Program-made: the position numbers and the translations under genes
Part shown: one piece after another, positions 4,819 through 18,170 of the stretch
How the letters are laid out: each line of letters begins with the position of its first letter
How positions within the stretch are numbered: position 1 is the first letter of the stretch
From: Candidatus Doudnabacteria bacterium RIFCSPHIGHO2_12_FULL_48_16
GTDB taxonomy: Bacteria > Patescibacteriota > Doudnabacteria > UBA920 > O2-02-FULL-48-8
DNA length: 64,000 nucleotides
Direction: 5' to 3'
Assembly: GCA_001780035.1 (NCBI GenBank)
Contig: MFEY01000007.1
Span: 331,146-395,145, forward strand
Notes under the pieces: model-generated
Databases searched by the model: none
What the model saw: the letters and a program-made list of their open reading frames with translations, nothing else
Told to the model about the DNA's origin: nothing

Positions 4819-5882
4819 TATTTTAGCTGGTTATTTTCAACCTTAAAGATCTGCACATCCTTGGCGAGTTTTGGCAAATGATGTTCTTCCGTAGTTGTGA
4901 TAAAAATTTGATGGCCGGTTAACGTTTCCAGCAATTTCGTCCGGCGAATTTCATCGAGTTCGGAAAACACATCGTCCAGTAGGATGACCGGCTTACTCTC
5001 ACCATTCGTTAAATATTCGGCCTGCAGTAACTTGAGTGCCAAAATCTGGGCGCGCAATTCGCCGCGGGAGGAATTATAAATATTCAGTTCCCCATTTTTT
5101 TTGATCAAAAAATCATCCCGATGCGGGCCCAGCAAATTTTTACCAGCCCGGATTTCCGCCGGCTCCAACCGGCCCAGTTCCGCCAAAAATTCATTCTCGT
5201 TCGCGAACCGGTTAGCGCTTACAAATTCAATCTGATATATATGATCAAAGTTGGTGAGGTCACGGTTGACCTGATTAAAGCGGCGGTTCAAAAACCCGAT
5301 CAGTTCTGTGCGCTTGACCCAAATAGTTAGGGCTGTTTTGGCCAATTCCAGGTTCCAATAATCAAGCTCGCTCCTTTGACCCTCCCCGCGCCCCAGCAGC
5401 TGCAGGAGCGCTCCACGCTGCTTCAAGACATGCTCTAGCGAAGACAGACTCAGCACATACAGGGAGTCCCGCTGGCCGAGCACCTCGTCCAGATATTTGC
5501 GGCGGAAGACGGGACCCAAAATGAACAAATTCAAATCATTGGGGACGAACAGCACGGTAGCGAAAGTTTGCCACAAGCTCCGTTTCGTTTTTTGGCCATC
5601 GAGTTTAAATGAGCGCTTAACCAAACCGGACTTTTGGACCACGGTTTCCATCTGCCGGTTGCCCGCTCGGCCCTGGAGAGCAAAATAATCTTCCCGGTGG
5701 TTGATCAGCAGCTCATCCGGAGCGCGGAATGACCTGAGGCGCGACAAAAAATAAATGCTTTCGAGCAGGTTGGTCTTGCCGGACGCATTGGCTCCCAATA
5801 TCAAAACGAGGTCAGAGTTGAAACTGACCTCAAGGTTTTGATAGTTACGGAAATTTTTTAAAACCAGATTGGTTAATCTCAT
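4818..5882 (-). CDS. recF: DNA replication and repair protein RecF
   Basis: 354 aa; N-terminal LVLKNFRNY...GANASGKTNLLE P-loop; position after dnaN. Confidence 0.93.
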   Translation of the reverse strand: MRLTNLVLKNFRNYQNLEVSFNSDLVLILGANASGKTNLLESIYFLSRLRSFRAPDELLINHREDYFALQGRAGNRQMETVVQKSGLVKRSFKLDGQKTKRSLWQTFATVLFVPNDLNLFILGPVFRRKYLDEVLGQRDSLYVLSLSSLEHVLKQRGALLQLLGRGEGQRSELDYWNLELAKTALTIWVKRTELIGFLNRRFNQVNRDLTNFDHIYQIEFVSANRFANENEFLAELGRLEPAEIRAGKNLLGPHRDDFLIKKNGELNIYNSSRGELRAQILALKLLQAEYLTNGESKPVILLDDVFSELDEIRRTKLLETLTGHQIFITTTEEHHLPKLAKDVQIFKVENNQLK

Positions 5883-6983
5883 TTACAGTTTAATCGGCAT
5901 CACGATATACAAATAATTATCGCGCTTAATCGGCACAATCGCCGCCGGCGAGGAATCATTAATCATTTTGAAAATCACACCTTCCTCGGACAGGTTATTA
6001 AGACAATCCAGCAGATAGCGGAAATTAAAAACAGCGGAGTTGTCGCCCCCGGTAACTTTGGCCTTAACCTGCGTGGTATTTTCGCCGGCGGCCATGGAGG
6101 AGGCGGTGACGGTCAGACCGCTGTCCGGCCGAACTTCGATCGTGATGTTGTTCGAGTCCGGAGCAAACAAGGCTGTGGCTTTTAACGCATGTAGCAGGTC
6201 TTCGCGGGGGACTTCCACCATGGTTTTAAATTCTTTGGGAATAATCTGCCGGTAATCCGGGTATTGGCCGTCGATCAGGCGCGAGATTAGTTCAGTATCA
6301 TCAAATTTGAATAGGACTTGGGATTCGGAAAAATAAATTTCCACCACGCCTTTGCCTAGCCCCAAAATCTTATATAGCTCGCCAACCGTGCGGGCCGGGA
6401 TGATAACCTCTTTCTGGCTGCGGGCCGGCTCCAGGAGAGTTGCGGTACGCTCAGCCAACCGATACCGGTCAGTGGTCGCAATCCGGACGCGATCATTCTC
6501 AAAAGCCATGAATACGCCGGAAATTTCCGGTTGGGTTTCGTTGGCGGCAGCAGCCCAGGCGGTTTCGGACAAGGCGTTTTTGAGCTCCTGACTGTCGATT
6601 TTGGCCAACGGCTCTTCGGTCACCTGCGGGATCAGCGGAAAATCTTCAGATGAAAGGCCTTTGATACTGGTGTGGTAGTTCTCCGATTCCAGCTTCAGGG
6701 TATTGTTTTCTGTCGTTTCGATCTCAACTTTCTCGGTCGGCAGGTTATTAATATATTCATTAATAATCCGGGCTGGCACGGTGATCGCGCCCTCTTCTTC
6801 AATTTTGCCGCCGACCCAAGTGTTAACCCCAATTTCCAGATTGGTCGAAGACAGTTTAACCCGGCCCTCATCTGTTTTTATTAAAATATTATTCAAAACC
6901 TGAAGCGGATTACCAGATCCGACAATCCGGCTAACCGCAAATAAACCTTTCTTTAAATTATCCCGCGTGCAAGTTATTTTCAT
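5883..6983 (-). CDS. dnaN: DNA polymerase III beta sliding clamp
   Basis: MKITCTRDNLKKGL start at 6983 (M43 of tracked ORF); full-length DnaN-like; between dnaA and recF. Confidence 0.93.
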   Translation of the reverse strand: MKITCTRDNLKKGLFAVSRIVGSGNPLQVLNNILIKTDEGRVKLSSTNLEIGVNTWVGGKIEEEGAITVPARIINEYINNLPTEKVEIETTENNTLKLESENYHTSIKGLSSEDFPLIPQVTEEPLAKIDSQELKNALSETAWAAAANETQPEISGVFMAFENDRVRIATTDRYRLAERTATLLEPARSQKEVIIPARTVGELYKILGLGKGVVEIYFSESQVLFKFDDTELISRLIDGQYPDYRQIIPKEFKTMVEVPREDLLHALKATALFAPDSNNITIEVRPDSGLTVTASSMAAGENTTQVKAKVTGGDNSAVFNFRYLLDCLNNLSEEGVIFKMINDSSPAAIVPIKRDNYLYIVMPIKL

Positions 6984-8884: not shown

Positions 8885-9222
8885 TGCCGAAGTTAACTCT
8901 TCTTAAAACTGAAAAAGATTTTTCAGCTTTTCGCAAAAGCCAATCCTATCACTCAAAGCTCCTAACGCTTCGTGTTCACTTTGCGGCAAACCAAAACTTT
9001 CCACGTTTTGGTTTTATTGTCCCCAAAAAGGTTCTGGCCAAAGCCACGGCGCGCAATTTGGTCAAACGCCGGATCAAAAACCTGCTGGTTAAGGTCCAGC
9101 CCCGGCTCAAACCGGCCGACCTGCTGTTCTTCCCGAAAGCCGGCCTGGTCAAGATCAAATTCGGAGAGCTGGAAGAGATCGTGAATAAATTATTTACCGA
9201 CGCGCGATTATGGAAATCCTAA
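8884..9222 (+). CDS. rnpA: ribonuclease P protein component
   Basis: 112 aa basic protein; FGFIVPKKV...ARNLVKRRIK motif; follows rpmH. Confidence 0.9.
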   Translation: MPKLTLLKTEKDFSAFRKSQSYHSKLLTLRVHFAANQNFPRFGFIVPKKVLAKATARNLVKRRIKNLLVKVQPRLKPADLLFFPKAGLVKIKFGELEEIVNKLFTDARLWKS

Positions 9223-9437
9223 AATCTGTCAGCAAATTTTTGGCCCTGCCGCTGGTCGGCCTGGTCGTGGTTTATCAGAAAACACTTTCACCCGACCATG
9301 GACCGCAGCAAATTTTGTATCCGTATGGCTACTGTCAGTTTTATCCGTCCTGTTCGGAGTTTGCCCGGTTAAGTTTATTAAACGACGGCTTGCTGTCCCT
9401 GCCGCAAATAATTAACCGGCTCATTCGCTGCCGCTAA
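9210..9437 (+). CDS. yidD: membrane protein insertion efficiency factor YidD
   Basis: 75 aa; YQKTLSP...CQFYPSCSEFA motif. Confidence 0.88.
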   Translation: MEILKSVSKFLALPLVGLVVVYQKTLSPDHGPQQILYPYGYCQFYPSCSEFARLSLLNDGLLSLPQIINRLIRCR

Positions 9438-9441
9438 ATTT

Positions 9442-10140
9442 ATGTCATATTGGTTTAATTTAATTTTAGTTTATCCCCTGCTCAATCTGTTGGTCTTTTT
9501 TTATCACTATATTCCGGACATCGGGGTGGTGATTATTATTTTGACGGTGCTGACGCGGCTGTTGCTCCTGCCATCGTTTCACAAGCAGCTCAAAAGCCAG
9601 AAAGTCATGAATGAGCTGCAGCCAAGAATGACTGCTCTCAAAGAAAAACATAAGGACGACAAAGAAGCGCACGCTAAGGCCATGATGGAGCTTTACAAGG
9701 AACATAAAGTAAACCCCCTAAGCGCCTGCCTGCCGTTGCTTATTCAGCTGCCGATTTTAATTGCCCTCTACCAGGTCTTTATCCAGAGCCTCAATGGCAC
9801 CCAACTGCACGGTCTGTATTCCTTCATTGCCGATCCGGGCCAAATTAATCCCATGTTTTTGCACTGGATTAACCTCGGGGGCCGCAATGTCGCCATGGCG
9901 ATCGTTGCCGGTTTGCTCCAGTATTTTCAAAGCCGGCTGATGCTGCCCAAGCAGCAGAGCGCCGATACCACGACCAAGATGATGCAATACCAGACGCTCT
10001 ATTTCCTGCCAGCCGTGACGGTTTTTATCGGCATGCGGTTTCCGGCCGGTTTGACCCTCTACTGGATTGTTACCACCCTGTTTGGCATTGCCCAGCAATA
10101 TTATATTTTAAGAAGAGAAGTGCAACCGGTTAAGGTATGA
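9442..10140 (+). CDS. yidC: membrane protein insertase YidC/Oxa1
   Basis: 232 aa polytopic; short YidC type; synteny with yidD and jag. Confidence 0.88.
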   Translation: MSYWFNLILVYPLLNLLVFFYHYIPDIGVVIIILTVLTRLLLLPSFHKQLKSQKVMNELQPRMTALKEKHKDDKEAHAKAMMELYKEHKVNPLSACLPLLIQLPILIALYQVFIQSLNGTQLHGLYSFIADPGQINPMFLHWINLGGRNVAMAIVAGLLQYFQSRLMLPKQQSADTTTKMMQYQTLYFLPAVTVFIGMRFPAGLTLYWIVTTLFGIAQQYYILRREVQPVKV

Positions 10141-10244
10141 ATCCCGTTATAAATTTTGCGTGGTTAACTACTGGCAAAAGCTATATTTTACGGGTTGATA
10201 ATAAAAATTATATATTATATTAACTAATCACTATTTCTAACGGG

Positions 10245-10763
10245 ATGAACGAGATACTTAAAAAAATTATTTTAGACTTACTGCGGCAGATGGGTTTTGA
10301 GGCCGAAGTTTATGAGCGGATGGAAGAAGACCGCACGGTTTTTAATGTCAAAACTAGAGACGCTCAGCTGTTGATCGGCAAGCAGGGTGCGAATCTGCAG
10401 GCTCTGCAGCATCTGATCCGAATTTTGTTTCGCAAGCAAACCAATGATGACCCGTCTCGCCCGGCGCGAGCCGAGGCGGACCGGTTTCCGTTTGCCGTCG
10501 ATATCGATGACTACAAAGACCAGCGCAGTTTGTATCTGAAGGAGTTGGCGCGCAAGGCCGCCCACCACGTGCGCCAAACCCGTAAGCCGGTGTCACTCGA
10601 ACCTATGCCGGCGCATGAGCGCCGGGTGGTCCATTCTTATCTTTCACTTTATAATGATATCGGTTCCGAAAGTGTGGGGGTGGAACCGAATCGCAAATTG
10701 ATTATCAAGCCCAAACAAAAACCCAAGGACAAGGATGGGTTTAATTTCGTCGAAAATAGTTAA
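10245..10763 (+). CDS. jag: Jag/KhpB RNA-binding protein (KH + R3H domains)
   Basis: 172 aa; C-terminal R3H-like ERRVVHSYL; follows yidC. Confidence 0.8.
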   Translation: MNEILKKIILDLLRQMGFEAEVYERMEEDRTVFNVKTRDAQLLIGKQGANLQALQHLIRILFRKQTNDDPSRPARAEADRFPFAVDIDDYKDQRSLYLKELARKAAHHVRQTRKPVSLEPMPAHERRVVHSYLSLYNDIGSESVGVEPNRKLIIKPKQKPKDKDGFNFVENS

Positions 10764-11545
10764 GCCCGGATCTTTAGTGGTTTAGAAATTTGCCAGATCA
10801 ATTCAAATTGGCCCTTTAGCATTTCAGCCAATTCTTCACTTTCAATCAAAAACCCGAAATTTTCCCGTGAGGATGAGATAAACCTCACGGTATTTTTGTA
10901 TATGGCGTACCCCAGGGAAAAATTAATGTTTGTTTGCGCGATTCGGACTTCCCTTTTGAATTCTGGGCCGAAAGCTAAGAATTTATGAACTTTGATAGAC
11001 GGGATTTGGTTTTGTGGCCAAATCACCTTGATTTTGATGTTGTTGGCTAATCTTTTTTTGTTGAATTCTTCTATAAAGTCAGGACCCAAAGTCTCCAACA
11101 CGTTCAGTATCGGCCAATAAGCCAAGAGGGTTATGTTTTCGTAGAGCAATAAATCCTTCATCATTTGCCGAAGTTCTTCCTGAGTTTCGAATAGCTGCAC
11201 CCGGGGCTGAAACAATTTACCATTCTTAGTATGTATACTTTTTAATTCATTCAAGGCTTGGCGGGCTTCAATAAGTTTATTCTCTTTTTCTTGGATTAAG
11301 AGATTGATTTTTTCGTATGGTGAAATAGCGAATAGTTTAATTCCATTTTTGAGAGTCTCAAAGACCAGACCCAGTTTAGTCATCTGGTCTAAAGAATTAT
11401 ATACTGTCGTCCGATTGGACTTTATTTGCTTAGCCAGAGAACTGGCTTTTTGAGGGCCGGTTAGAAGCAGGACCTCAAAAATTTGTATCTGAGAAGGATC
11501 CAAAGCAAATACTGAATAGATTGATTTTAAGTTCATTGTTGTCAA
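10760..11545 (-). CDS. TrmB-like winged-helix transcriptional regulator (paralog 1 of 5)
   Basis: N-terminal wHTH (IQIFEVLLLTGPQKASSLAKQIKSNRTTVYNSLDQMTKLGLV), coiled linker, C-terminal domain ending FELIWQ; stop overlaps jag stop. Confidence 0.7.
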   Translation of the reverse strand: MTTMNLKSIYSVFALDPSQIQIFEVLLLTGPQKASSLAKQIKSNRTTVYNSLDQMTKLGLVFETLKNGIKLFAISPYEKINLLIQEKENKLIEARQALNELKSIHTKNGKLFQPRVQLFETQEELRQMMKDLLLYENITLLAYWPILNVLETLGPDFIEEFNKKRLANNIKIKVIWPQNQIPSIKVHKFLAFGPEFKREVRIAQTNINFSLGYAIYKNTVRFISSSRENFGFLIESEELAEMLKGQFELIWQISKPLKIRA

Positions 11546-11615
11546 ATTGTCTCAACAGTCTTTACAATATATTATATTATTTGCATAATGTCAAATCAAC
11601 TTGATGGAGGACAAC

Positions 11616-12263
11616 ATGAAAAAACGATTGTTGGTAGTCGATCTGGGTTACACGCAGGGCCAATCGGTTATCGGCCAATTCCCCGAGTCTACGGAATTGA
11701 AGGTCGTGTATACATTGGAAGAGGCACATGAGGAAGTTCGGCCCAAATATGGTCATACGTGGGAAGAACTGTGGGCGCAGTATAGGCCGAACCATGCAGG
11801 AGGCAATACTCAATGGTGGCATCATTTCAAAATAAGACGTGAGAAGTTACTCCAATCGCGCCTGCCATACTGGGACGCAGTGTTGACTGACTTGTGGGAG
11901 AACGACACAGATCAGATTCCCGTAGGGTTTGGAATAGCCACGATCGCTGTATTCTCCGGGGCCAAATACGTAGGGATTATGCAAAGGCGTAGTCGCAAAG
12001 ACTCCATCTTTCATTGGCTGCCAGGTTTAGGTTTTGATAACCCATCATGGTTGCAGATCGAAGAAAGAAAAGTTATCGTGTCTAACGACCAACCATATGG
12101 GAAGGGGTGGTGTGAGCAGTGGAACGATCTTTTGAGAACATCGGTGGTCTCCAATGAATTCCCCACGGATAGTTACACGAACCAGCGGGTAAAGATGGAG
12201 GAAATGGGCGGCTATGAGGCAGCTGTAAACCACTACTGGCCAGATCTCATCAAACCTAAATAA
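11616..12263 (+). CDS. hypothetical Trp-rich protein
   Basis: GGAGG SD 5 nt before ATG 11616 (M6 of tracked ORF); no family recognised. Confidence 0.55.
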   Translation: MKKRLLVVDLGYTQGQSVIGQFPESTELKVVYTLEEAHEEVRPKYGHTWEELWAQYRPNHAGGNTQWWHHFKIRREKLLQSRLPYWDAVLTDLWENDTDQIPVGFGIATIAVFSGAKYVGIMQRRSRKDSIFHWLPGLGFDNPSWLQIEERKVIVSNDQPYGKGWCEQWNDLLRTSVVSNEFPTDSYTNQRVKMEEMGGYEAAVNHYWPDLIKPK

Positions 12264-12276
12264 AGCCTAAATAAAA

Positions 12277-12305
12277 GCATGGCTCAGTCGCTGACTGAGC
12301 CATGC
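12277..12305 (+). terminator. intrinsic terminator (13-bp stem)
   Basis: GCATGGCTCAGTC-GCT-GACTGAGCCATGC followed by TAGTTTTT; 21-nt core is repeated at 13171. Confidence 0.75.
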
Positions 12306-12335
12306 TAGTTTTTATATAGCGTTGGCGATAAAGAT

Positions 12336-12428
12336 TTAATCTTGGATATAGAACAGACTGATCATGAACCAAAATAAGATCGCCAGATCGTTTTTGAAGT
12401 AAGGGACATCGACCAAGTCGTGCAGAAT
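12336..12428 (-). pseudogene. 3'-terminal remnant of an O-antigen-ligase-like gene (31 codons + stop)
   Basis: hand translation HDQLILHDLVDVPYFKNDLAILFWFMISLFYIQD* versus the C-terminus of the 14385-15587 gene ...ILHGLVDVPYFKNDLAVLFWFAISLFYLDN*. Confidence 0.8.
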
Positions 12429-12520
12429 CAGTTGGTCATGAACCCGCCCGCAAATTGGTGATCCGGCCCAAACAAAAACCCAAAGATAAAGATGGGTTTA
12501 ACTTTGTGGAAAACAGCTAG
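12425..12520 (+). pseudogene. 3'-terminal remnant of a jag gene (31 codons + stop)
   Basis: hand translation ESVGHEPARKLVIRPKQKPKDKDGFNFVENS* versus jag C-terminus ESVGVEPNRKLIIKPKQKPKDKDGFNFVENS*; all differences in the last 13 codons are synonymous. Confidence 0.8.
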
Positions 12521-12556
12521 AAATTAAATCGTCCCGATTAATCGGGACGATTTTAC

Positions 12557-12832
12557 TTAATCGCGCTTTGGCTGACCGTTTGAATATTGGTGGATCAGCG
12601 AAGCCATCAGAGTTTGATACGGAATACCTTTTTGTAGAGCCATCGCTTTTATCTTCAACAAGTCGCTTTCCGATAGGCGAATGTTAACATTTCTTGTTTT
12701 ATCTAAAGCAGCCTTCGCGTATGCTTGGTAACGCAATTTCTCAATTTTTTGATTAGAGACAGGCTTAACTTTACCCTTTTCATAGGATTTTATTATCTCT
12801 TTTTCGTAATCATCGAGTTCTAAATATTGCAT
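12557..12832 (-). CDS. brnA: BrnA-like (CopG/RHH) antitoxin
   Basis: 91 aa; downstream partner of the BrnT-like ORF; C-terminal NIRLSESDLLKIKAMALQKGIPYQTLMASLIHQY resembles BrnA RHH region. Confidence 0.65.
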   Translation of the reverse strand: MQYLELDDYEKEIIKSYEKGKVKPVSNQKIEKLRYQAYAKAALDKTRNVNIRLSESDLLKIKAMALQKGIPYQTLMASLIHQYSNGQPKRD

Positions 12833-12835
12833 AGT

Positions 12836-13111
12836 TTATTTATTAATTAAGTATTTCTTAGTCGCCTTACGGCTCGGGATAATAGTTTTTAAAAAGATTT
12901 TTTTATCATCTTCCACAAAAGGAACCAAGTAAGCGTAATGATTGATTTCAACCACAAAGATTTTTTGGTTGAGGTATTTTTTTGAGTTCGGGTGTTCTAG
13001 GATGTCGAGTAACCGACCCTCATTTAAGGCTATAATGATATACTCAAATCCTATACCGCGGCTATCTATTAGCTGAATATTTTTATCAACACTCCAGTCA
13101 AAATACTTCAT
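12836..13111 (-). CDS. brnT: BrnT-like (DUF497) ribonuclease toxin
   Basis: 91 aa; FDWSVDKN start and C-terminal IIPSRKATKKY resemble the BrnT family; 3-nt gap to antitoxin gene. Confidence 0.65.
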   Translation of the reverse strand: MKYFDWSVDKNIQLIDSRGIGFEYIIIALNEGRLLDILEHPNSKKYLNQKIFVVEINHYAYLVPFVEDDKKIFLKTIIPSRKATKKYLINK

Positions 13112-13170
13112 AAATATAGTTTATGACAAAGCATACTATTTGTCAATATATAGGTTCAAATAAAAAGGAA

Positions 13171-13193
13171 CGGCTCAGTCGCTGACTGAGCCG
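13171..13193 (-). terminator. terminator hairpin sharing a 21-nt core with 12281-12301
   Basis: CGGCTCAGTC-GCT-GACTGAGCCG; on minus strand followed by TTCCTTTTTA; just downstream of the 13207 stop. Confidence 0.65.
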
Positions 13194-13206
13194 TGCCGCC
13201 GACTTT

Positions 13207-13500
13207 TTAAGTTGGCGGCATTCGGAACGAATCCAAGAGCGCGGCAAGAAGCTTCGATTTACCCAATTTCTTGATAGGCCCACTTGCTGTAAAGCGTGTT
13301 CCTGTCCAACGCACTATTTTGTGTGCGATCCGGCCGATTACGATGCCCATTGGCAGAGATATCGCGAAGGACACGTACCACGCATGTAGCCATCTCGCAA
13401 CAAAATCGTCAACGAAACCCAAGTTCCGCCAGGTCGCCACGCCGGTCACGAGTAGGCTCATGAACAGCATCCGGAGCACTTGCTCTGCGTACCAGACCAT
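13207..13500 (-). CDS. small membrane protein, DUF2798-like
   Basis: strong SD AAGGAGGA before ATG 13500 (M22 of tracked ORF); two-TM pattern resembling DUF2798. Confidence 0.5.
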   Translation of the reverse strand: MVWYAEQVLRMLFMSLLVTGVATWRNLGFVDDFVARWLHAWYVSFAISLPMGIVIGRIAHKIVRWTGTRFTASGPIKKLGKSKLLAALLDSFRMPPT

Positions 13501-13629
13501 TATTCCTCCTTTGTGTTGCCAGAGTGCAACGATATAGATTATCAGTTCTAGGAATATATACAATAATTTGGGCAGTTATTTCGAGATATTGACAAAAAGC
13601 CAATAAATAAGGCATTATATAGGCAATTA

Positions 13630-14388
13630 ATGCCGCCAGTTTTTATGGCAGAATCCCAATTAGAGCGCATTCTTATCGAATATGGGCTTAGACAAAAACA
13701 AGCCAAGGTTTACTTGGCGTGTTTGGAAGTGGGTTCAGGCACCGTGCTGAAGATCGCCCAAGCCGCTGGCATGCCCCGTTCCACTACGGAACTGGAACTG
13801 AACCACTTGTTGGACAGCGGTCTGGTCTCCATGTATAAAAAGAAAAGCGTGAAGTATTTTAGTGCCGATGACCCTCATTCGCTTTTGAATTTACTGGAAG
13901 AAAAATCCGAACTAATCCAAAGAGCGCTGCCAAAATTTGTTTCTTTATATGGCAGCAATAAAACCAGGCCCTCAGTGCGATTTTACGAAGGCCGTCAGGG
14001 GTTGAAGCTAGTCTTAGGTGAAATACTTGTGGAAGCCAAGGAATTAATTTCACTTGGTTCAGCAGAGGATTTATTTAAAGTTTTGGAAGACTTTCCGGAA
14101 TTCGTAATGAAAAGAGTGGAACGTAAAATTCCTGTTAAAGTTATTCTTATAGATTCTCCGAAGGCCAGAGAGAGAAAGCTTCTGGGACCACAACAGCTTC
14201 GGCAGGTAAGACTGATACCGGAAACTTACAGTTATCACGGTCAATACAATGTTTGGAACAACAAGATCGCGATGTTTTCCTTTGGCCGTAATTTGTCAGC
14301 TGTGGTAATAGAAAGCCTAGAACTGGCGCAAATGCAAAAGGCTGCCTTTAATTTTATGTGGGACAGCCTGGAGGTCAAGAGAAATTAA
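13630..14388 (+). CDS. TrmB-like winged-helix transcriptional regulator (paralog 2)
   Basis: KQAKVYLACLEVGSGTVLKIAQAAGMPRSTTELELNHLLDSGLV wHTH; C-terminal AFNFMWD; stop overlaps ligase stop by 4 nt. Confidence 0.7.
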   Translation: MPPVFMAESQLERILIEYGLRQKQAKVYLACLEVGSGTVLKIAQAAGMPRSTTELELNHLLDSGLVSMYKKKSVKYFSADDPHSLLNLLEEKSELIQRALPKFVSLYGSNKTRPSVRFYEGRQGLKLVLGEILVEAKELISLGSAEDLFKVLEDFPEFVMKRVERKIPVKVILIDSPKARERKLLGPQQLRQVRLIPETYSYHGQYNVWNNKIAMFSFGRNLSAVVIESLELAQMQKAAFNFMWDSLEVKRN

Positions 14389-15587
14389 TTGTCTAAGTAA
14401 AATAGTGAAATCGCAAACCAAAACAGCACGGCTAAATCATTCTTGAAATAAGGGACATCGACCAAGCCGTGCAAAATCACAATCAGCAGGAATGCCGCGG
14501 CCGCCAGGCCCCACACCGTGGGGTGTTTTTTTTGCCGCTCGCCGACGGCACCTATGATCAGACCAAATGCCAGCAGCCCAAGCAAGCCGGTTTCGAGCCA
14601 GAAGTTCAGAAAAATATTGTGCGGATAATTGAGAATCTCTCCTTGAAAGTCGGCCGCGCTCAGAGTCGTGCGAAAACCGTGCAGTCCGTTGCCCAAAAAT
14701 GGTTCGTCTTGGATTTTTTGGATGCCAAGCCGCATGAGCTCCAGCCGGGCGTCACTGGAAGCATCGGAGACGGCGGAGACGAGCCGTTGCCGGATCGGAG
14801 CCACTCCCACTCCCAATGATCCGAGCAATACCAGGGTGACGATGGTCAGTACAGCCCGGCCGCTGTGGTTTTTGATCAGGAACAGAGTCAGGGTAATTGC
14901 AACCGCGAGCCAGGCGCCCCGGGAAAAGGTGAGAATCAAGGCCGCGGCCATGAGCAGGAGCCCCAGAATTTCCAGCCATTCGCGTTCAAATAACCGATAT
15001 TTTTTGTAAATTAAAATCGCAAACAGACCAAACAACGGCGCCAGGAACAAGGCCAGGGCATTCGGATAATCGAAAACCGAAGTTATGCGCTCCGGTTCTA
15101 TCCCCGTGCCCCAAAATCGGATTGGCAAGCCGGACAGGGTAAAATATTGGACGACGCCGAACAGCGAGATTAATCCGGAGCTCACAAACAATCCCTGCAG
15201 CGCCAATCTGATATTTGATTTTTCTTCCCATAGCAACACTAGCGCGTAAAATACCAAGACTGGTTCGATAAAGAAAGCCTTCAGTTCTCCCAGGGCCTTA
15301 AGTTTTTCCGGCGAGAGATAGGCGGCCACAGACGCGGCCAGTAAAAATAACCCGATGATCCAATTGAGCCGGCCGAGTTTGCGAAGCGGCCGGAAGTCCG
15401 GCTGTTGGGCCAGCAATCCGACAAGAAAAGCCAGGATTAAAACTTCAAGCAGAGTGGTTGGCAATCCCAGCAGCGTGAATCGGACTTGATAAGCCGGCAG
15501 CAAAAACAGCAGGACGGCCAAAGCCCAGCCAGGTTTTTTGAAAGCCAGATATAAGAAACAGACACTGATGACAAAAATGATCGTCAT
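14385..15587 (-). CDS. O-antigen ligase-like (Wzy_C) polytopic membrane protein
   Basis: 400 aa, about 10 TM; FSRGAWLAVAITL motif typical of Wzy_C/O-antigen ligase family. Confidence 0.7.
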   Translation of the reverse strand: MTIIFVISVCFLYLAFKKPGWALAVLLFLLPAYQVRFTLLGLPTTLLEVLILAFLVGLLAQQPDFRPLRKLGRLNWIIGLFLLAASVAAYLSPEKLKALGELKAFFIEPVLVFYALVLLWEEKSNIRLALQGLFVSSGLISLFGVVQYFTLSGLPIRFWGTGIEPERITSVFDYPNALALFLAPLFGLFAILIYKKYRLFEREWLEILGLLLMAAALILTFSRGAWLAVAITLTLFLIKNHSGRAVLTIVTLVLLGSLGVGVAPIRQRLVSAVSDASSDARLELMRLGIQKIQDEPFLGNGLHGFRTTLSAADFQGEILNYPHNIFLNFWLETGLLGLLAFGLIIGAVGERQKKHPTVWGLAAAAFLLIVILHGLVDVPYFKNDLAVLFWFAISLFYLDN

Positions 15588-15590
15588 TTA

Positions 15591-18170
15591 TTATTTGGCG
15601 ACATTGATTGATATGCTGTTTTGAATTGTCCCCTGGCCGGGCACATGGGCAAATGCCGAGAGCCGGTGGGCACCGTTATCAATATGCGGAATGGTGAAAC
15701 TAAAGGGCGAATTATTTTTGGTTCCAATCTGCTGATCATCCAGATAAAGTTCGACTGACGTCGGTACGAACCCCGTAACGTCAACCTGCACGGTCAGCGG
15801 CAGCTTATTGATGATCTGATTATTGACCGGCGCGACAAAGCTCACCAGCTTGTCATTGCTGCCCGGCGTTCCATCCAAGCCGCCGCTCCCGGCTGACCCA
15901 TCATCCTCTTCAGTCGGCGGGTAGGCAAAGCCGGCGGCCAGGGCCCAAGCCCGAACCGGGTTTTCCCAGTTGGGATTATTGGGCATTTCCGAATGCAGCA
16001 CGGTGTAGACCCGGTTTTCCAGCGCATCCGGCGGGGTCAGGCTGGAGGCTTTTAAGCCGTTGTATTTGTTGATGGCCACGGAGATGTGGACGTCGTCGAA
16101 ATCTTTGGGCAGGGCGAAGCTGGCAAAAACTTCGCTCTTGGTCGACGGGGTCAATTCGGTCGGCAATTTACCGGAAATAGCATCCACCACCACGCGCTGG
16201 ATGCCCGGCGGCTCAGCAAAGGTTTCCGCCGGCGTTCCTTTGAGCGCATTGAGCATAAACTGACGCCAGATCGGAGCGGCCACGATGACGCCGTCCGCAC
16301 CGCGGCGCATGACGGAAGAATCGTTGTTGCCCACCCAGACGCCGGCTACCAGCGAGGGAGTAAAGCCCAGGGCCCAGCCGTCCTTCCATTCTTGGGTCGT
16401 GCCGGTTTTGGCGGCCACCACCCGACCGGGCAAAGTTAACGGCGAGTTGGGCCCGAAGACAAATGCGCGCGCGTCGTTGTCAGTCATGACGCTGTCAACT
16501 TCGTAGGCGACTTGGGGGTCAATCACTTCGCGGCCCTCGCCCGGCTTGTATTCTTCCAAGACGTTGCCCTGGCCGTCCTCCACTTTCAGAATCGGTGTTG
16601 CCTCGTGCCGGATTCCCATATTGGCAAAGACCCCCATGGCTGAGACGTGGTCCAACAGTTTAAGTTCACAGCCGCCCAAAACCAGGGCCAAGCCACAGCG
16701 ATCGGCGCTGATGTCCGAGGTAATGCCCATGTCTTTGGCCGTATCAATGGCATTTTGGACGCCGACCAGGGCCAGGGTTTTAACCGCCGGGATGTTTAAC
16801 GATCCGGCAAACCCTTTGCGGATATTCACGATCCCGTGGTTGGCGCCGTCATAATTGCCCGGGGCGTATTCCTTGCCGCCGTAGGTGCCAAACACGGTTC
16901 GCACATCCACCAGCATCGTAGCCGGGCTCAATCCCTGTTTGAAGGCGGTGGCGTAAATGTAAGGTTTGATTGAGGATCCGGGCTGGCGTTCGCGCAGGGC
17001 GACATTGACCTGGCCGTCGTGTTCATCGTCAAAATAATTGCGTGAGCCGACCATGGCCAGAATCTCGCCGGTCTTTGGATCAATTGCAACCAGCGAGGCA
17101 TTGGAGGCGTTGTTTCGTTTTTCATTGATGGTCACACCATCGGTAACCGCTTTTTCCGCTATTTGCTGCAGGTTCCAGTCCAGCGAGGTCGTAACTTTGA
17201 GGCCGCCCACTTCCAAAGTTTGTTCGCCGTATTTTTCCGCCAGCAAGCTTTCCACGTAGAGCACGAAGTGCGGGGCCAGGATCGCGTCGCGGACTTTGTT
17301 GAAGGTCACTTTTTCCGCCTTGGCGGTCTCTGCCTGATCATGAGTGATGTATCCTTGCTCGGCCATTTGATCGAGCACGTAATTTTTTCGGCCATCGAGC
17401 CGGTCGCGGTTCGGCCCGCTCGGGTTATAAAAACTTGGCGCCTGGGGCAGGGCCGCGACATAAGCGGATTCGGCCAGGGTCAGATCGTGGGCGTGTTTGT
17501 CGAAGTAAGTCTGTGCGGCCGCTTCGATCCCGTAGGCATTCTGGCCGTAAGGAATTTCGTTTAAATAAAAACCGAGAATCTGGTCTTTGGAATAGCGCTG
17601 ATCCAGTTCGACGGCCAATACAATCTCTTTGATTTTCCTGACCCAGGTTTTTTCCCGCGTCAGAATGGCGTTGCGCACAAATTGCTGGGTGATGGTGGAG
17701 CCGCCCTGGCTGAGACTGCCGGAGGTTAAATCCACCCAAATCGAACGAAGAATTCCGGTCCAGCTGACCCCGGAGTTTTTATAAAAATTTTTATCCTCGA
17801 TTGCGATCGCGGCCTGCTTGGCATAATCGGGAATCTCGCTTAAGTCAATCAAAGTCCGCTTGGCCTCGCCATGAACTTCATACAACAGCGTCGTGCCGTC
17901 GCGGGCGTAAATTTTGGTCGATTGGGGAATCAGCCGCGTATCCAGTTTGGCCGGGTCAGGCAGGGTCAGGGCGATGACGGTAAACGAGACGCTGACAAAG
18001 AGCAGGCAGAACCCGCCGAAGTAAAGGACGAACCGGGTGATTTTTTGGCGATAAGCCTTGTCGCTGCGGAATCGTTCCACGAACCGGCGCGGCCAGGCGG
18101 TGGCCAAACCCCAGATTTTTTTGATCGAAAATTTGCGGTGTTTGTTCCAATTGGATTGGATGTAAGCCAT
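15591..18170 (-). CDS. class A penicillin-binding protein (glycosyltransferase + transpeptidase)
   Basis: 859 aa; GT51 motifs IEDKNFY, GGSTITQQ; transpeptidase SSIKP and KTGTT; extra C-terminal beta-rich domain. Confidence 0.92.
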   Translation of the reverse strand: MAYIQSNWNKHRKFSIKKIWGLATAWPRRFVERFRSDKAYRQKITRFVLYFGGFCLLFVSVSFTVIALTLPDPAKLDTRLIPQSTKIYARDGTTLLYEVHGEAKRTLIDLSEIPDYAKQAAIAIEDKNFYKNSGVSWTGILRSIWVDLTSGSLSQGGSTITQQFVRNAILTREKTWVRKIKEIVLAVELDQRYSKDQILGFYLNEIPYGQNAYGIEAAAQTYFDKHAHDLTLAESAYVAALPQAPSFYNPSGPNRDRLDGRKNYVLDQMAEQGYITHDQAETAKAEKVTFNKVRDAILAPHFVLYVESLLAEKYGEQTLEVGGLKVTTSLDWNLQQIAEKAVTDGVTINEKRNNASNASLVAIDPKTGEILAMVGSRNYFDDEHDGQVNVALRERQPGSSIKPYIYATAFKQGLSPATMLVDVRTVFGTYGGKEYAPGNYDGANHGIVNIRKGFAGSLNIPAVKTLALVGVQNAIDTAKDMGITSDISADRCGLALVLGGCELKLLDHVSAMGVFANMGIRHEATPILKVEDGQGNVLEEYKPGEGREVIDPQVAYEVDSVMTDNDARAFVFGPNSPLTLPGRVVAAKTGTTQEWKDGWALGFTPSLVAGVWVGNNDSSVMRRGADGVIVAAPIWRQFMLNALKGTPAETFAEPPGIQRVVVDAISGKLPTELTPSTKSEVFASFALPKDFDDVHISVAINKYNGLKASSLTPPDALENRVYTVLHSEMPNNPNWENPVRAWALAAGFAYPPTEEDDGSAGSGGLDGTPGSNDKLVSFVAPVNNQIINKLPLTVQVDVTGFVPTSVELYLDDQQIGTKNNSPFSFTIPHIDNGAHRLSAFAHVPGQGTIQNSISINVAK

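Follow-up and report, generated by a model that had tools for sequence, protein, structure and literature searches.

We analysed a 64-kb stretch of DNA (the window) from a Candidatus Doudnabacteria genome of the Patescibacteria, or candidate phyla radiation (CPR), from the Rifle aquifer. Its subject here is the interval between jag and an O-antigen-ligase-like gene, in which the truncated tail of a second ligase gene (L') and the truncated tail of a second jag gene (J') meet head to head between two cargo units (X1 and X2). The interval adjoins the origin-proximal dnaA-rpmH-rnpA-yidD-yidC-jag cluster, in which dnaA (minus strand), rpmH, rnpA, yidD and yidC precede jag. The left conserved flank is the jag/EloR-like gene (J; 10245-10763, plus strand), with KH and R3H domains (Pfam R3H/KH, NCBIfam Jag_EloR), the last ~37-55 nt of which are a recombination breakpoint zone. 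The right conserved flank is the full Wzy_C/O-antigen-ligase-like gene (L; 14385-15587, minus; Pfam Wzy_C), and beyond it lies PBP1A. The resident ligase is 100% identical to a protein from 'Candidatus Doudnabacteria bacterium RIFCSPLOWO2_02_FULL...'.

Between these flanks, X1 (10760-12335) consists of a TrmB-like gene identified by Pfam (TrmB1; 10760-11545, minus), a gene for a 215-aa protein that matches no known family (11616-12263, plus) and a terminator-like hairpin (12268-12314) in which the palindrome GGCTCAGTCGCTGACTGAGCC lies. The ligase tail L' (12336-12430, minus) follows with ~31 last codons and the stop of a Wzy_C/O-antigen-ligase-like gene, and then the jag tail J' (12425-12520, plus) with 31 last codons and the stop. 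X2 (12521-14384) begins with a hairpin (12521-12558) and continues with a CopG/BrnA-like antitoxin gene (12557-12832, minus), a BrnT-like toxin gene (12836-13111, minus), a second hairpin with the palindrome GGCTCAGTCGCTGACTGAGCC (13164-13196), a DUF2798 gene (13207-13500, minus; Pfam) and the TrmB2 module, made up of a promoter region from ~13552 and a second TrmB-like gene (13630-14388, plus; Pfam). The overall order is J-X1-L'|J'-X2-L. For jag, the two TrmB-like proteins, DUF2798 and Wzy_C, Pfam confirms the calls made in an earlier reading of the letters and open reading frames (ORFs) alone, hereafter the sequence-only reading. Its call of a BrnA/BrnT-like toxin-antitoxin (TA) pair holds in part: the 91+91-aa two-gene architecture fits a TA pair, while the Pfam scores lie below gathering (BrnT_toxin 19.2 bits against a cut-off of 34.5, CopG_antitoxin 26.8 against 28) and are only suggestive of membership in the BrnT/BrnA families.

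The L' remnant, read on the minus strand over 12336-12428, translates to ILHDLVDVPYFKNDLAILFWFMISLFYIQD followed by a stop codon, and J', read on the plus strand over 12425-12520, translates to ESVGHEPARKLVIRPKQKPKDKDGFNFVENS followed by a stop codon. At the nucleotide level the ligase tails form a direct repeat of 95 nt with 72% identity (12336-12430 and 14385-14479) and the jag tails one of 80 nt with 80% identity (12440-12519 and 10683-10762); no larger direct repeats occur in 9000-17000. In tblastn searches of the 64-kb window with the 45-aa tails, J' and L' were recovered with E values of 1.1e-15 and 1.3e-14, respectively, and the next-best matches had E values of at least 0.2. As L' reads to 12428-12430 and J' begins at 12425, the remnants overlap head to head by 4-6 nt. 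At this novel joint (12425-12430) the truncated 5' ends meet, and GAATCA can be read in both. The translations, coordinates and abutment of the sequence-only reading match ours. Confinement of the similarity to low-complexity sequence, which it had considered, is not what we find: the similarity is not low-complexity, and covers the conserved ligase motif LVDVPYFKNDL...LFWF and the jag terminus KPKDKDGFNFVENS. As neither remnant forms an ORF of at least 30 aa in the ORF list of the window, the pair is flanked by two convergent terminator hairpins and no Rfam match over 10000-15000 reaches gathering level, the 185-bp element is a dead, non-functional and non-coding recombination joint.

Many contigs, produced by several assembly pipelines, show the arrangement J-X1-L'|J'-X2-L with 100% identity. 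They include ENA megahit contigs of up to 73 kb, the 231-kb ANAN16 scaffold, two metagenome-assembled genomes at NCBI and several JGI assemblies. Contig MFFK01000038 of NCBI assembly GCA_001777855.1 is identical to the region.

Both remnants are in frame, without indels and with the stop codon at the homologous position. Codon comparison of J and J' gave 25 nucleotide differences over 32 codons, with 4 amino-acid changes, and that of L and L' gave 7 amino-acid changes over 31 homologous codons. Exactly as claimed earlier, none of the 9 differences in the last 13 jag codons, the TAA/TAG stop counted, alters the encoded sequence, and a serine swap of AGT and TCA is present in both pairs. By Nei-Gojobori counts the proportion of synonymous differences (pS) is saturated at 0.78 for J/J' and 0.88 for L/L', and that of nonsynonymous differences (pN) is 0.13 and 0.16, respectively. 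This dN/dS analysis is in agreement with the earlier proposal that the remnants diverged under purifying selection elsewhere. As synonymous saturation is combined with a low pN and with intact frame, stop and motifs, the counts support the view that the remnants acquired their differences in other lineages, as working genes, and did not decay in place. Decay in place from an identical duplicate would be insufficient, because such a synonymous distance is incompatible with the kept frame, stop and motifs. The sole obvious decay in the remnants is a Gly to Asp exchange in L' at G374, a position that is invariant across 19 orthologues in the alignment. Since the frames and stops are otherwise intact in a transcriptionally silent spot, the joint is young, whereas the parts that it connects stand far from the resident genes in phylogeny.

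To which lineages the remnants are closest was judged from their homologues. The full jag tail best matches the nearest sampled relative, L021, at 81/96 nt, whereas J' agrees with L021 at only 67/96. Among the best 120 jag homologues, the closest known tail to J' is that of P0190 (locus L117) from another Doudnabacteria lineage, with 30/31 aa and 81/96 nt. Of the best 120 ligase homologues, one, P0092, ends in FMISLFYIQD before its stop, like L'. P0092 belongs to a co-occurring Doudnabacteria species (species B), whose PBP, TyrRS, RuvC and YebC genes are 69-74% identical to the window at the nucleotide level. L' is identical to the P0092 ligase over 21 stop-proximal nt and 78% identical over 96 nt; over a conserved 81-nt block it is about equidistant (59-66/81) from all sampled ligases, the resident one included. 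The P0092 and P0190 genomes were rejected as the donors themselves, with nucleotide identities of only 78% and 84%, respectively, and in L117 jag and ligase enclose no cargo. These comparisons point to donors among other Doudnabacteria, outside the sampled genomes; at least one remnant stems from another Doudnabacteria species, and probably both do. In JGI metagenome contigs, no match was obtained with a degenerate DNA pattern designed for J'-type jag genes of full length or with an exact pattern for the species-B ligase tail, and a 53-aa chimeric query for the J' donor returned a single candidate, a fragment of the window's own jag.

To place the interval in context, related loci were collected by a ligase-profile scan with one genome per GTDB species, plus look-ups, and 33 loci keep the convergent jag/ligase synteny. 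In the closest relatives, L021, L023 and L027 (ligases 70%, 61% and 59% identical), jag and ligase converge, with their ends either overlapping in TTAA or lying 48 bp apart with a single terminator; in about 20 further species, too, the two genes abut or share the TTAA overlap. The gap between jag and ligase, estimated from alignment ends, is ~120 bp or less in 24 of the 33 loci. It is ~370-740 bp in six, of which L044 (a 150-aa protein) and L049 (ORF6N alone) hold one cargo gene each and the other four no clear cargo, and the remaining three carry cargo of 1.9-4.9 kb. These are L039 with a TrmB2-like gene and a decayed ORF6N, L070 with a 151-aa ORF and an unknown protein, and L110 with GAF/RHH, an ABC1 kinase, a membrane protein and an RHH/ParE pair. 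Overall, about 26 of the related genomes lack a cargo gene in the slot, and about 7 hold other cargo. The ancestral state in Doudnabacteria is that of convergent neighbours, jag and the ligase-like gene, with touching ends. Among the cargo proteins of this species and of L110 scanned with Pfam, PADLOC, PHROGs and NCBIfam, no recombinase family was found. The island and the 215-aa protein have no meaningful match in phage, plasmid and IMG/VR collections.

A second haplotype (H2) occurs in the same species as that of the window (H1). Four contigs (L007, L013, L015 and L016) encode the same jag and ligase proteins but enclose a different interval (X3), which lacks the L'|J' scar and holds ORF6N, a 58-aa ORF, an unknown 400-aa protein and TrmB2v, a 68%-identical allele of TrmB2. 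From the window, H2 differs only between 10727 and 14352, the sequence up to 10726 and from 14353 on being the same. At 10727-10751 its version of the jag tail has six J'-type changes, all synonymous, and it closes with a third ending, AAT TCA TAA. The left H1/H2 crossover lies inside the block CCCAAACAAAAACCCAA, which is common to all alleles (jag-tail block 10709-10726), and the right one within the last 36 nt of TrmB2. Both haplotypes coexist in samples JGI 3300025317 and ERZ4903072, so the lack of polymorphism against which the sequence-only reading had set its proposal is not seen. Its claim of a cargo-exchange hotspot without an integrase is borne out by the cargo-free relatives, the other cargo and the lack of a recombinase match. 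With conserved core flanks, alternative contents within one species and breakpoints in the flanks, the data support a recombinase-free replacement hotspot driven by homologous recombination.

The H2 ORF6N protein (L007 10535-11092; L013 13699-14256) matches the PADLOC candidate defence family PDC-S05 with E = 6e-55, and ORF6N genes occupy the jag/ligase slot of two other species, L049 and, in decayed form, L039. That TrmB2v had passed recently between this species and L039 was considered and rejected, as the nucleotide identity is only 72%.

Exchange with species B is suggested by the TrmB2 module, which in species B is 89% identical to the window over 13556-14483 (L119-L122). As this is far above the ~70% of the core genes, the module has moved between the two lineages. 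Its left boundary, at ~13552-13556, is the same in three haplotypes (window, variant and species B), and together with its promoter region it can be regarded as a semi-conserved module and a possible right-hand recombination anchor. Two further contigs, L115 (ERZ4903072 k141_59668) and L123 (ERZ27254763 k141_1051898), show the full H1 island and the scar joined to the species-B ligase and PBP. These megahit contigs are 100% identical to the window over 10586-14373 and are probably the same sample assembled twice. As the switch to the species-B ligase falls at 14344-14373, a 30-nt block identical in both species, the contigs may represent either a real inter-species crossover or a low-k assembly chimera, and sharing of the whole island between species is unproven.

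A tail-duplicate scan of 79 GTDB loci found one further scar, in the distant CPR bacterium of locus L110 (CAYPVQ010000010.1, 5660-5990), whose ligase is 33% identical. The scar has the same topology, in the order ligase - GAF/RHH - ABC1 - membrane protein - hairpin - J'(-)|L'(+) - RHH/ParE - jag. Its J' (5679-5713) has lost the stop and shares 88.6% identity with the jag tail; its L' (~5717-5985) is 83.6% identical to the ligase tail over 110 nt, and comprised originally ~140 codons, of which ~53 were removed by an internal deletion. The joint is again direct and head to head, but unlike in the window the breakpoints lie at ~20 and ~140 codons, and decay is more advanced. As the L110 joint lies at different codons, the two scars are independent and not site-specific. 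Both adjoin a type II TA pair.

The order and orientation of the remnants constrain how the scar arose. L' and J' keep the orientation of the full genes but stand in the order L' then J', head to head, as opposed to the tail-to-tail order of the native jag and ligase tails. In topology, the scar is a tandem-duplication-type novel joint, and the units that it connects are heterologous. Apart from TrmB1 and TrmB2, which share 28% identity, X1 and X2 have no homologous genes. They are not duplicates of each other, and for this reason 'imported' fits better than 'duplicated'. Given these distant paralogues, the 72-80% identity of the tails and their saturated pS, one or both units would have been imported.

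Taken together, we consider it likely that the scar is the joint of a heterologous, tandem-duplication-type recombination, by which two cargo units were fused at a hotspot driven by homologous recombination. Two versions of the interval would have come into tandem, one with jag, TrmB1, the 215-aa protein gene and a ligase tail, the other with a jag tail, the TA pair, DUF2798, TrmB2 and the ligase. The parental alleles may have had the form of one jag allele, TrmB1, the 215-aa protein gene and a ligase allele with YIQD, and of another jag allele with HEPARKLVIRPKQ, the TA pair, further X2 cargo and another ligase allele. The units would then have been joined by a single illegitimate crossover, probably at GAATCA, that cut the ligase of one lineage 30 codons before its end and the jag of another lineage 31 codons before its end. 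The overlap of this motif suggests microhomology; the resident ligase reads AAATCA where the joint has GAATCA. Usually, cargo is changed by homologous replacement, in which the crossovers fall into short stretches of identity in the jag tail and at the TrmB2/ligase end, while in this case a foreign allele of the slot, taken up as DNA, may have been added instead of substituted.

Three routes would lead to such an addition. The first is homology-facilitated illegitimate recombination (HFIR), with one homologous crossover in a conserved flank and one illegitimate end; the second is a Campbell insertion of a circularised foreign fragment; the third is a duplication in situ, followed by replacement of a copy. 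The sequence-only reading had named tandem duplication and Campbell-type integration as origins of this topology; the reverse-order, head-to-head tails fit both, and HFIR is added here. Because X1 is unrelated to X2 and the synonymous sites of both remnants are saturated, HFIR or a Campbell insertion is favoured over duplication in situ. The remnants with their topology and foreign origin, the polymorphism, the cargo-free sites and the recurrence are shown directly, whereas the microhomology, the way in which the DNA entered and the question of which unit came second are matters of inference.

Several observations weigh against a fusion of imported units. An X1-only or X2-only form was not found: exact look-ups of jag, the ligase and the 215-aa protein gave H1 and H2 contexts only. 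Of the X1-only, X2-only and empty sites that the sequence-only reading expected among relatives, it is the empty ones that exist in our set, and the parental alleles are accordingly deduced, not observed. The scar is present in only 2 of ~33 syntenic loci. The nearest relatives of J' and L' reach only 84% and 78% nucleotide identity and L' is about equally far from all sampled ligase tails, so a single donor (Campbell insertion or circle) and one native remnant (HFIR) are both compatible with the data. Finally, the flanks differ by 25-30% from the remnants, and RecA-type anchoring would have depended on very short stretches of identity or on a different anchor, for example TrmB2.

The same topology would be given by a tandem duplication in situ, from jag tail to ligase tail, of which one or both copies were later overwritten by foreign alleles through homologous recombination. 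The locus does show allelic replacement with crossovers inside the tails, and the apparent mosaic of L', which matches the resident ligase at 88.6% over the 44 junction-proximal nt and equals the species-B ligase over the 21 stop-proximal nt, keeps this explanation alive. It requires more events, however, and tandem copies without sequence differences are not stable. For the replacement, crossovers would have to fall inside remnants of at most 95 bp, X1 and X2 share no genes save the distant TrmB paralogues, and both remnants are saturated with synonymous differences relative to the resident genes. We therefore regard a duplication in situ as unlikely.

A more far-reaching proposal is that the slot in Doudnabacteria and other CPR bacteria is served by a dedicated, recombinase-independent transfer of 'flank-homing' islands, fragments or circles bearing both flank ends. 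The L'|J' joints would then be the junctions of closed circles, and the 3.8-kb island of L115/L123 a recent hop between species. We consider this doubtful and put it forward as a speculation.

Partial duplication of the 3' end of a target gene is a classic signature of site-specific integration, and it could be argued that integrase-type elements had entered the 3' ends of jag and the ligase gene and left the displaced native tails as att repeats. Apart from the duplicated 3' ends, the TA pair in the cargo, as in many islands, would be in line with this. Such elements predict J-cargo-J'.L'-cargo-L, tail to tail, however, whereas J-X1-L'|J'-X2-L, head to head, is seen. Moreover, no cargo ORF matches a recombinase family, the differing breakpoints in L110 imply that there is no fixed att core, and remnants with 72-80% identity are too diverged from the full tails for att repeats, which makes integrase-type elements highly improbable. 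Sequential insertion into both gene 3' ends was dismissed, as it would leave J'.L' in native order. An artefact, be it chance or low-complexity similarity or a chimeric assembly of two co-occurring strains, is effectively refuted and hardly credible: although the metagenome assemblies hold strain mixtures and contigs break at 10586 through strain variation, the joint is the same in contigs of 73-231 kb and others from several assemblers and samples, remnants that are 20-28% diverged from any co-assembled full copy cannot be mis-joined copies, and repeats found with E values of ~1e-15 are not low-complexity.

Hotspots of homologous replacement between core genes are known from pneumococcal cps (dexB-aliA) and the E. 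coli O-antigen locus (galF-gnd), and 'hotspots' of this replacement kind were reportedly described by Oliveira and co-workers in 2017. The jag/ligase slot resembles the cps and O-antigen loci in its core flanks, its alternative and unrelated contents in conspecifics, its cargo-free relatives, the lack of a recombinase and the mosaic, hyper-divergent ends of its flanks. In contrast to them, the slot is a tiny one of 0-5 kb, bounded by the ends of two convergent genes beside the dnaA...jag cluster of a CPR bacterium. Its cargo consists of regulators, TA pairs, ORF6N/PDC-S05 and unknowns, with no polysaccharide pathway, and the haplotype of the window retains old and new cargo joined by a scar.

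This retention is reminiscent of HFIR, which is said to have been described by de Vries and Wackernagel and by Prudhomme and co-workers, both in 2002. HFIR has been used to explain the 'orphan' displaced 3' ends and immunity arrays of Rhs, contact-dependent inhibition (CDI) and type VI secretion system (T6SS) loci (PMC5361080). Common to HFIR and the window are foreign DNA beside what would be a homologous anchor, old cargo that is kept, a truncated 3' gene end, a possible microhomology and the lack of a recombinase. Unlike in the HFIR and Rhs cases, remnants of both flanking genes are present here, abutting head to head, and the microhomology is putative; an experimental transformation system is lacking for Doudnabacteria. 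Merodiploids arise through natural transformation (PMC3784515). With these and with tandem-duplication joints the window shares intact outer flank genes and an internal joint of truncated right- and left-flank sequences. It differs from them in that the units (~1.7-2 kb) are heterologous, with different cargo and saturated tails, and for this reason the structure is stable and involves DNA of another lineage. A literature search on CPR and recombination hotspots yielded nothing specific.

The scar is neutral, a new example of known processes and a fairly ordinary footprint of recombination, with no new kind of mobile element or molecular machine. CPR bacteria are uncultivable and genetically intractable, and gene exchange among them is known mostly by inference. 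The locus records in compact form how a natural Doudnabacteria population recombines, with a conserved slot, several haplotypes that coexist in one aquifer, crossovers that can be placed within blocks of 20-30 nt, and flank alleles drawn from other species. Beyond replacement, the scar shows that illegitimate, additive recombination happens as well. Its defined junction sequences could be tracked in read data to measure gene flow within and between CPR species.

As to the cargo units, exact copies of the 215-aa protein always sit in the same H1 context. The larger cargo proteins without a match in Pfam, NCBIfam, PHROGs and PADLOC are this protein (11616-12263), the 400-aa and 58-aa proteins of the variant (L013 12092-13470) and a protein of at least 319 aa in species B (L120 2300-3256); they show no detectable kinship to one another. 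A putative ~16-nt remnant of the TrmB2 3' end to the left of L' matches at 11/16 positions, which is not significant, and was discarded.

The motif TTAA marks the overlapping stops of the convergent pairs jag/TrmB1 (10760-10763) and TrmB2/ligase (14385-14388), the latter formed by the ligase stop and the TrmB2 stop. The same overlap is found between jag and ligase in cargo-free genomes (e.g. L021 4262-4265), and the L' remnant retains the TTAA (12336-12339). A transposon target-site duplication was rejected as its source, since TTAA represents overlapping stops, occurs in cargo-free genomes as well, and is accompanied by no terminal inverted repeats.

The palindrome GGCTCAGTCGCTGACTGAGCC resembles an intrinsic terminator, with a T run after the stem, and is absent from some gene boundaries. 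An integron-like cassette array was rejected on these grounds, as there is no integrase and the palindrome is terminator-like and not present at every gene boundary. It occurs nowhere else in the 64-kb window, nor in the loci of any other species. Within this species it is a perfect palindrome of 21 nt inside 33-nt terminator-like hairpins (12281-12301, 13172-13192 and L013 13492-13512), and it is present in all three cargo modules, X1, X2 and X3 of the variant.

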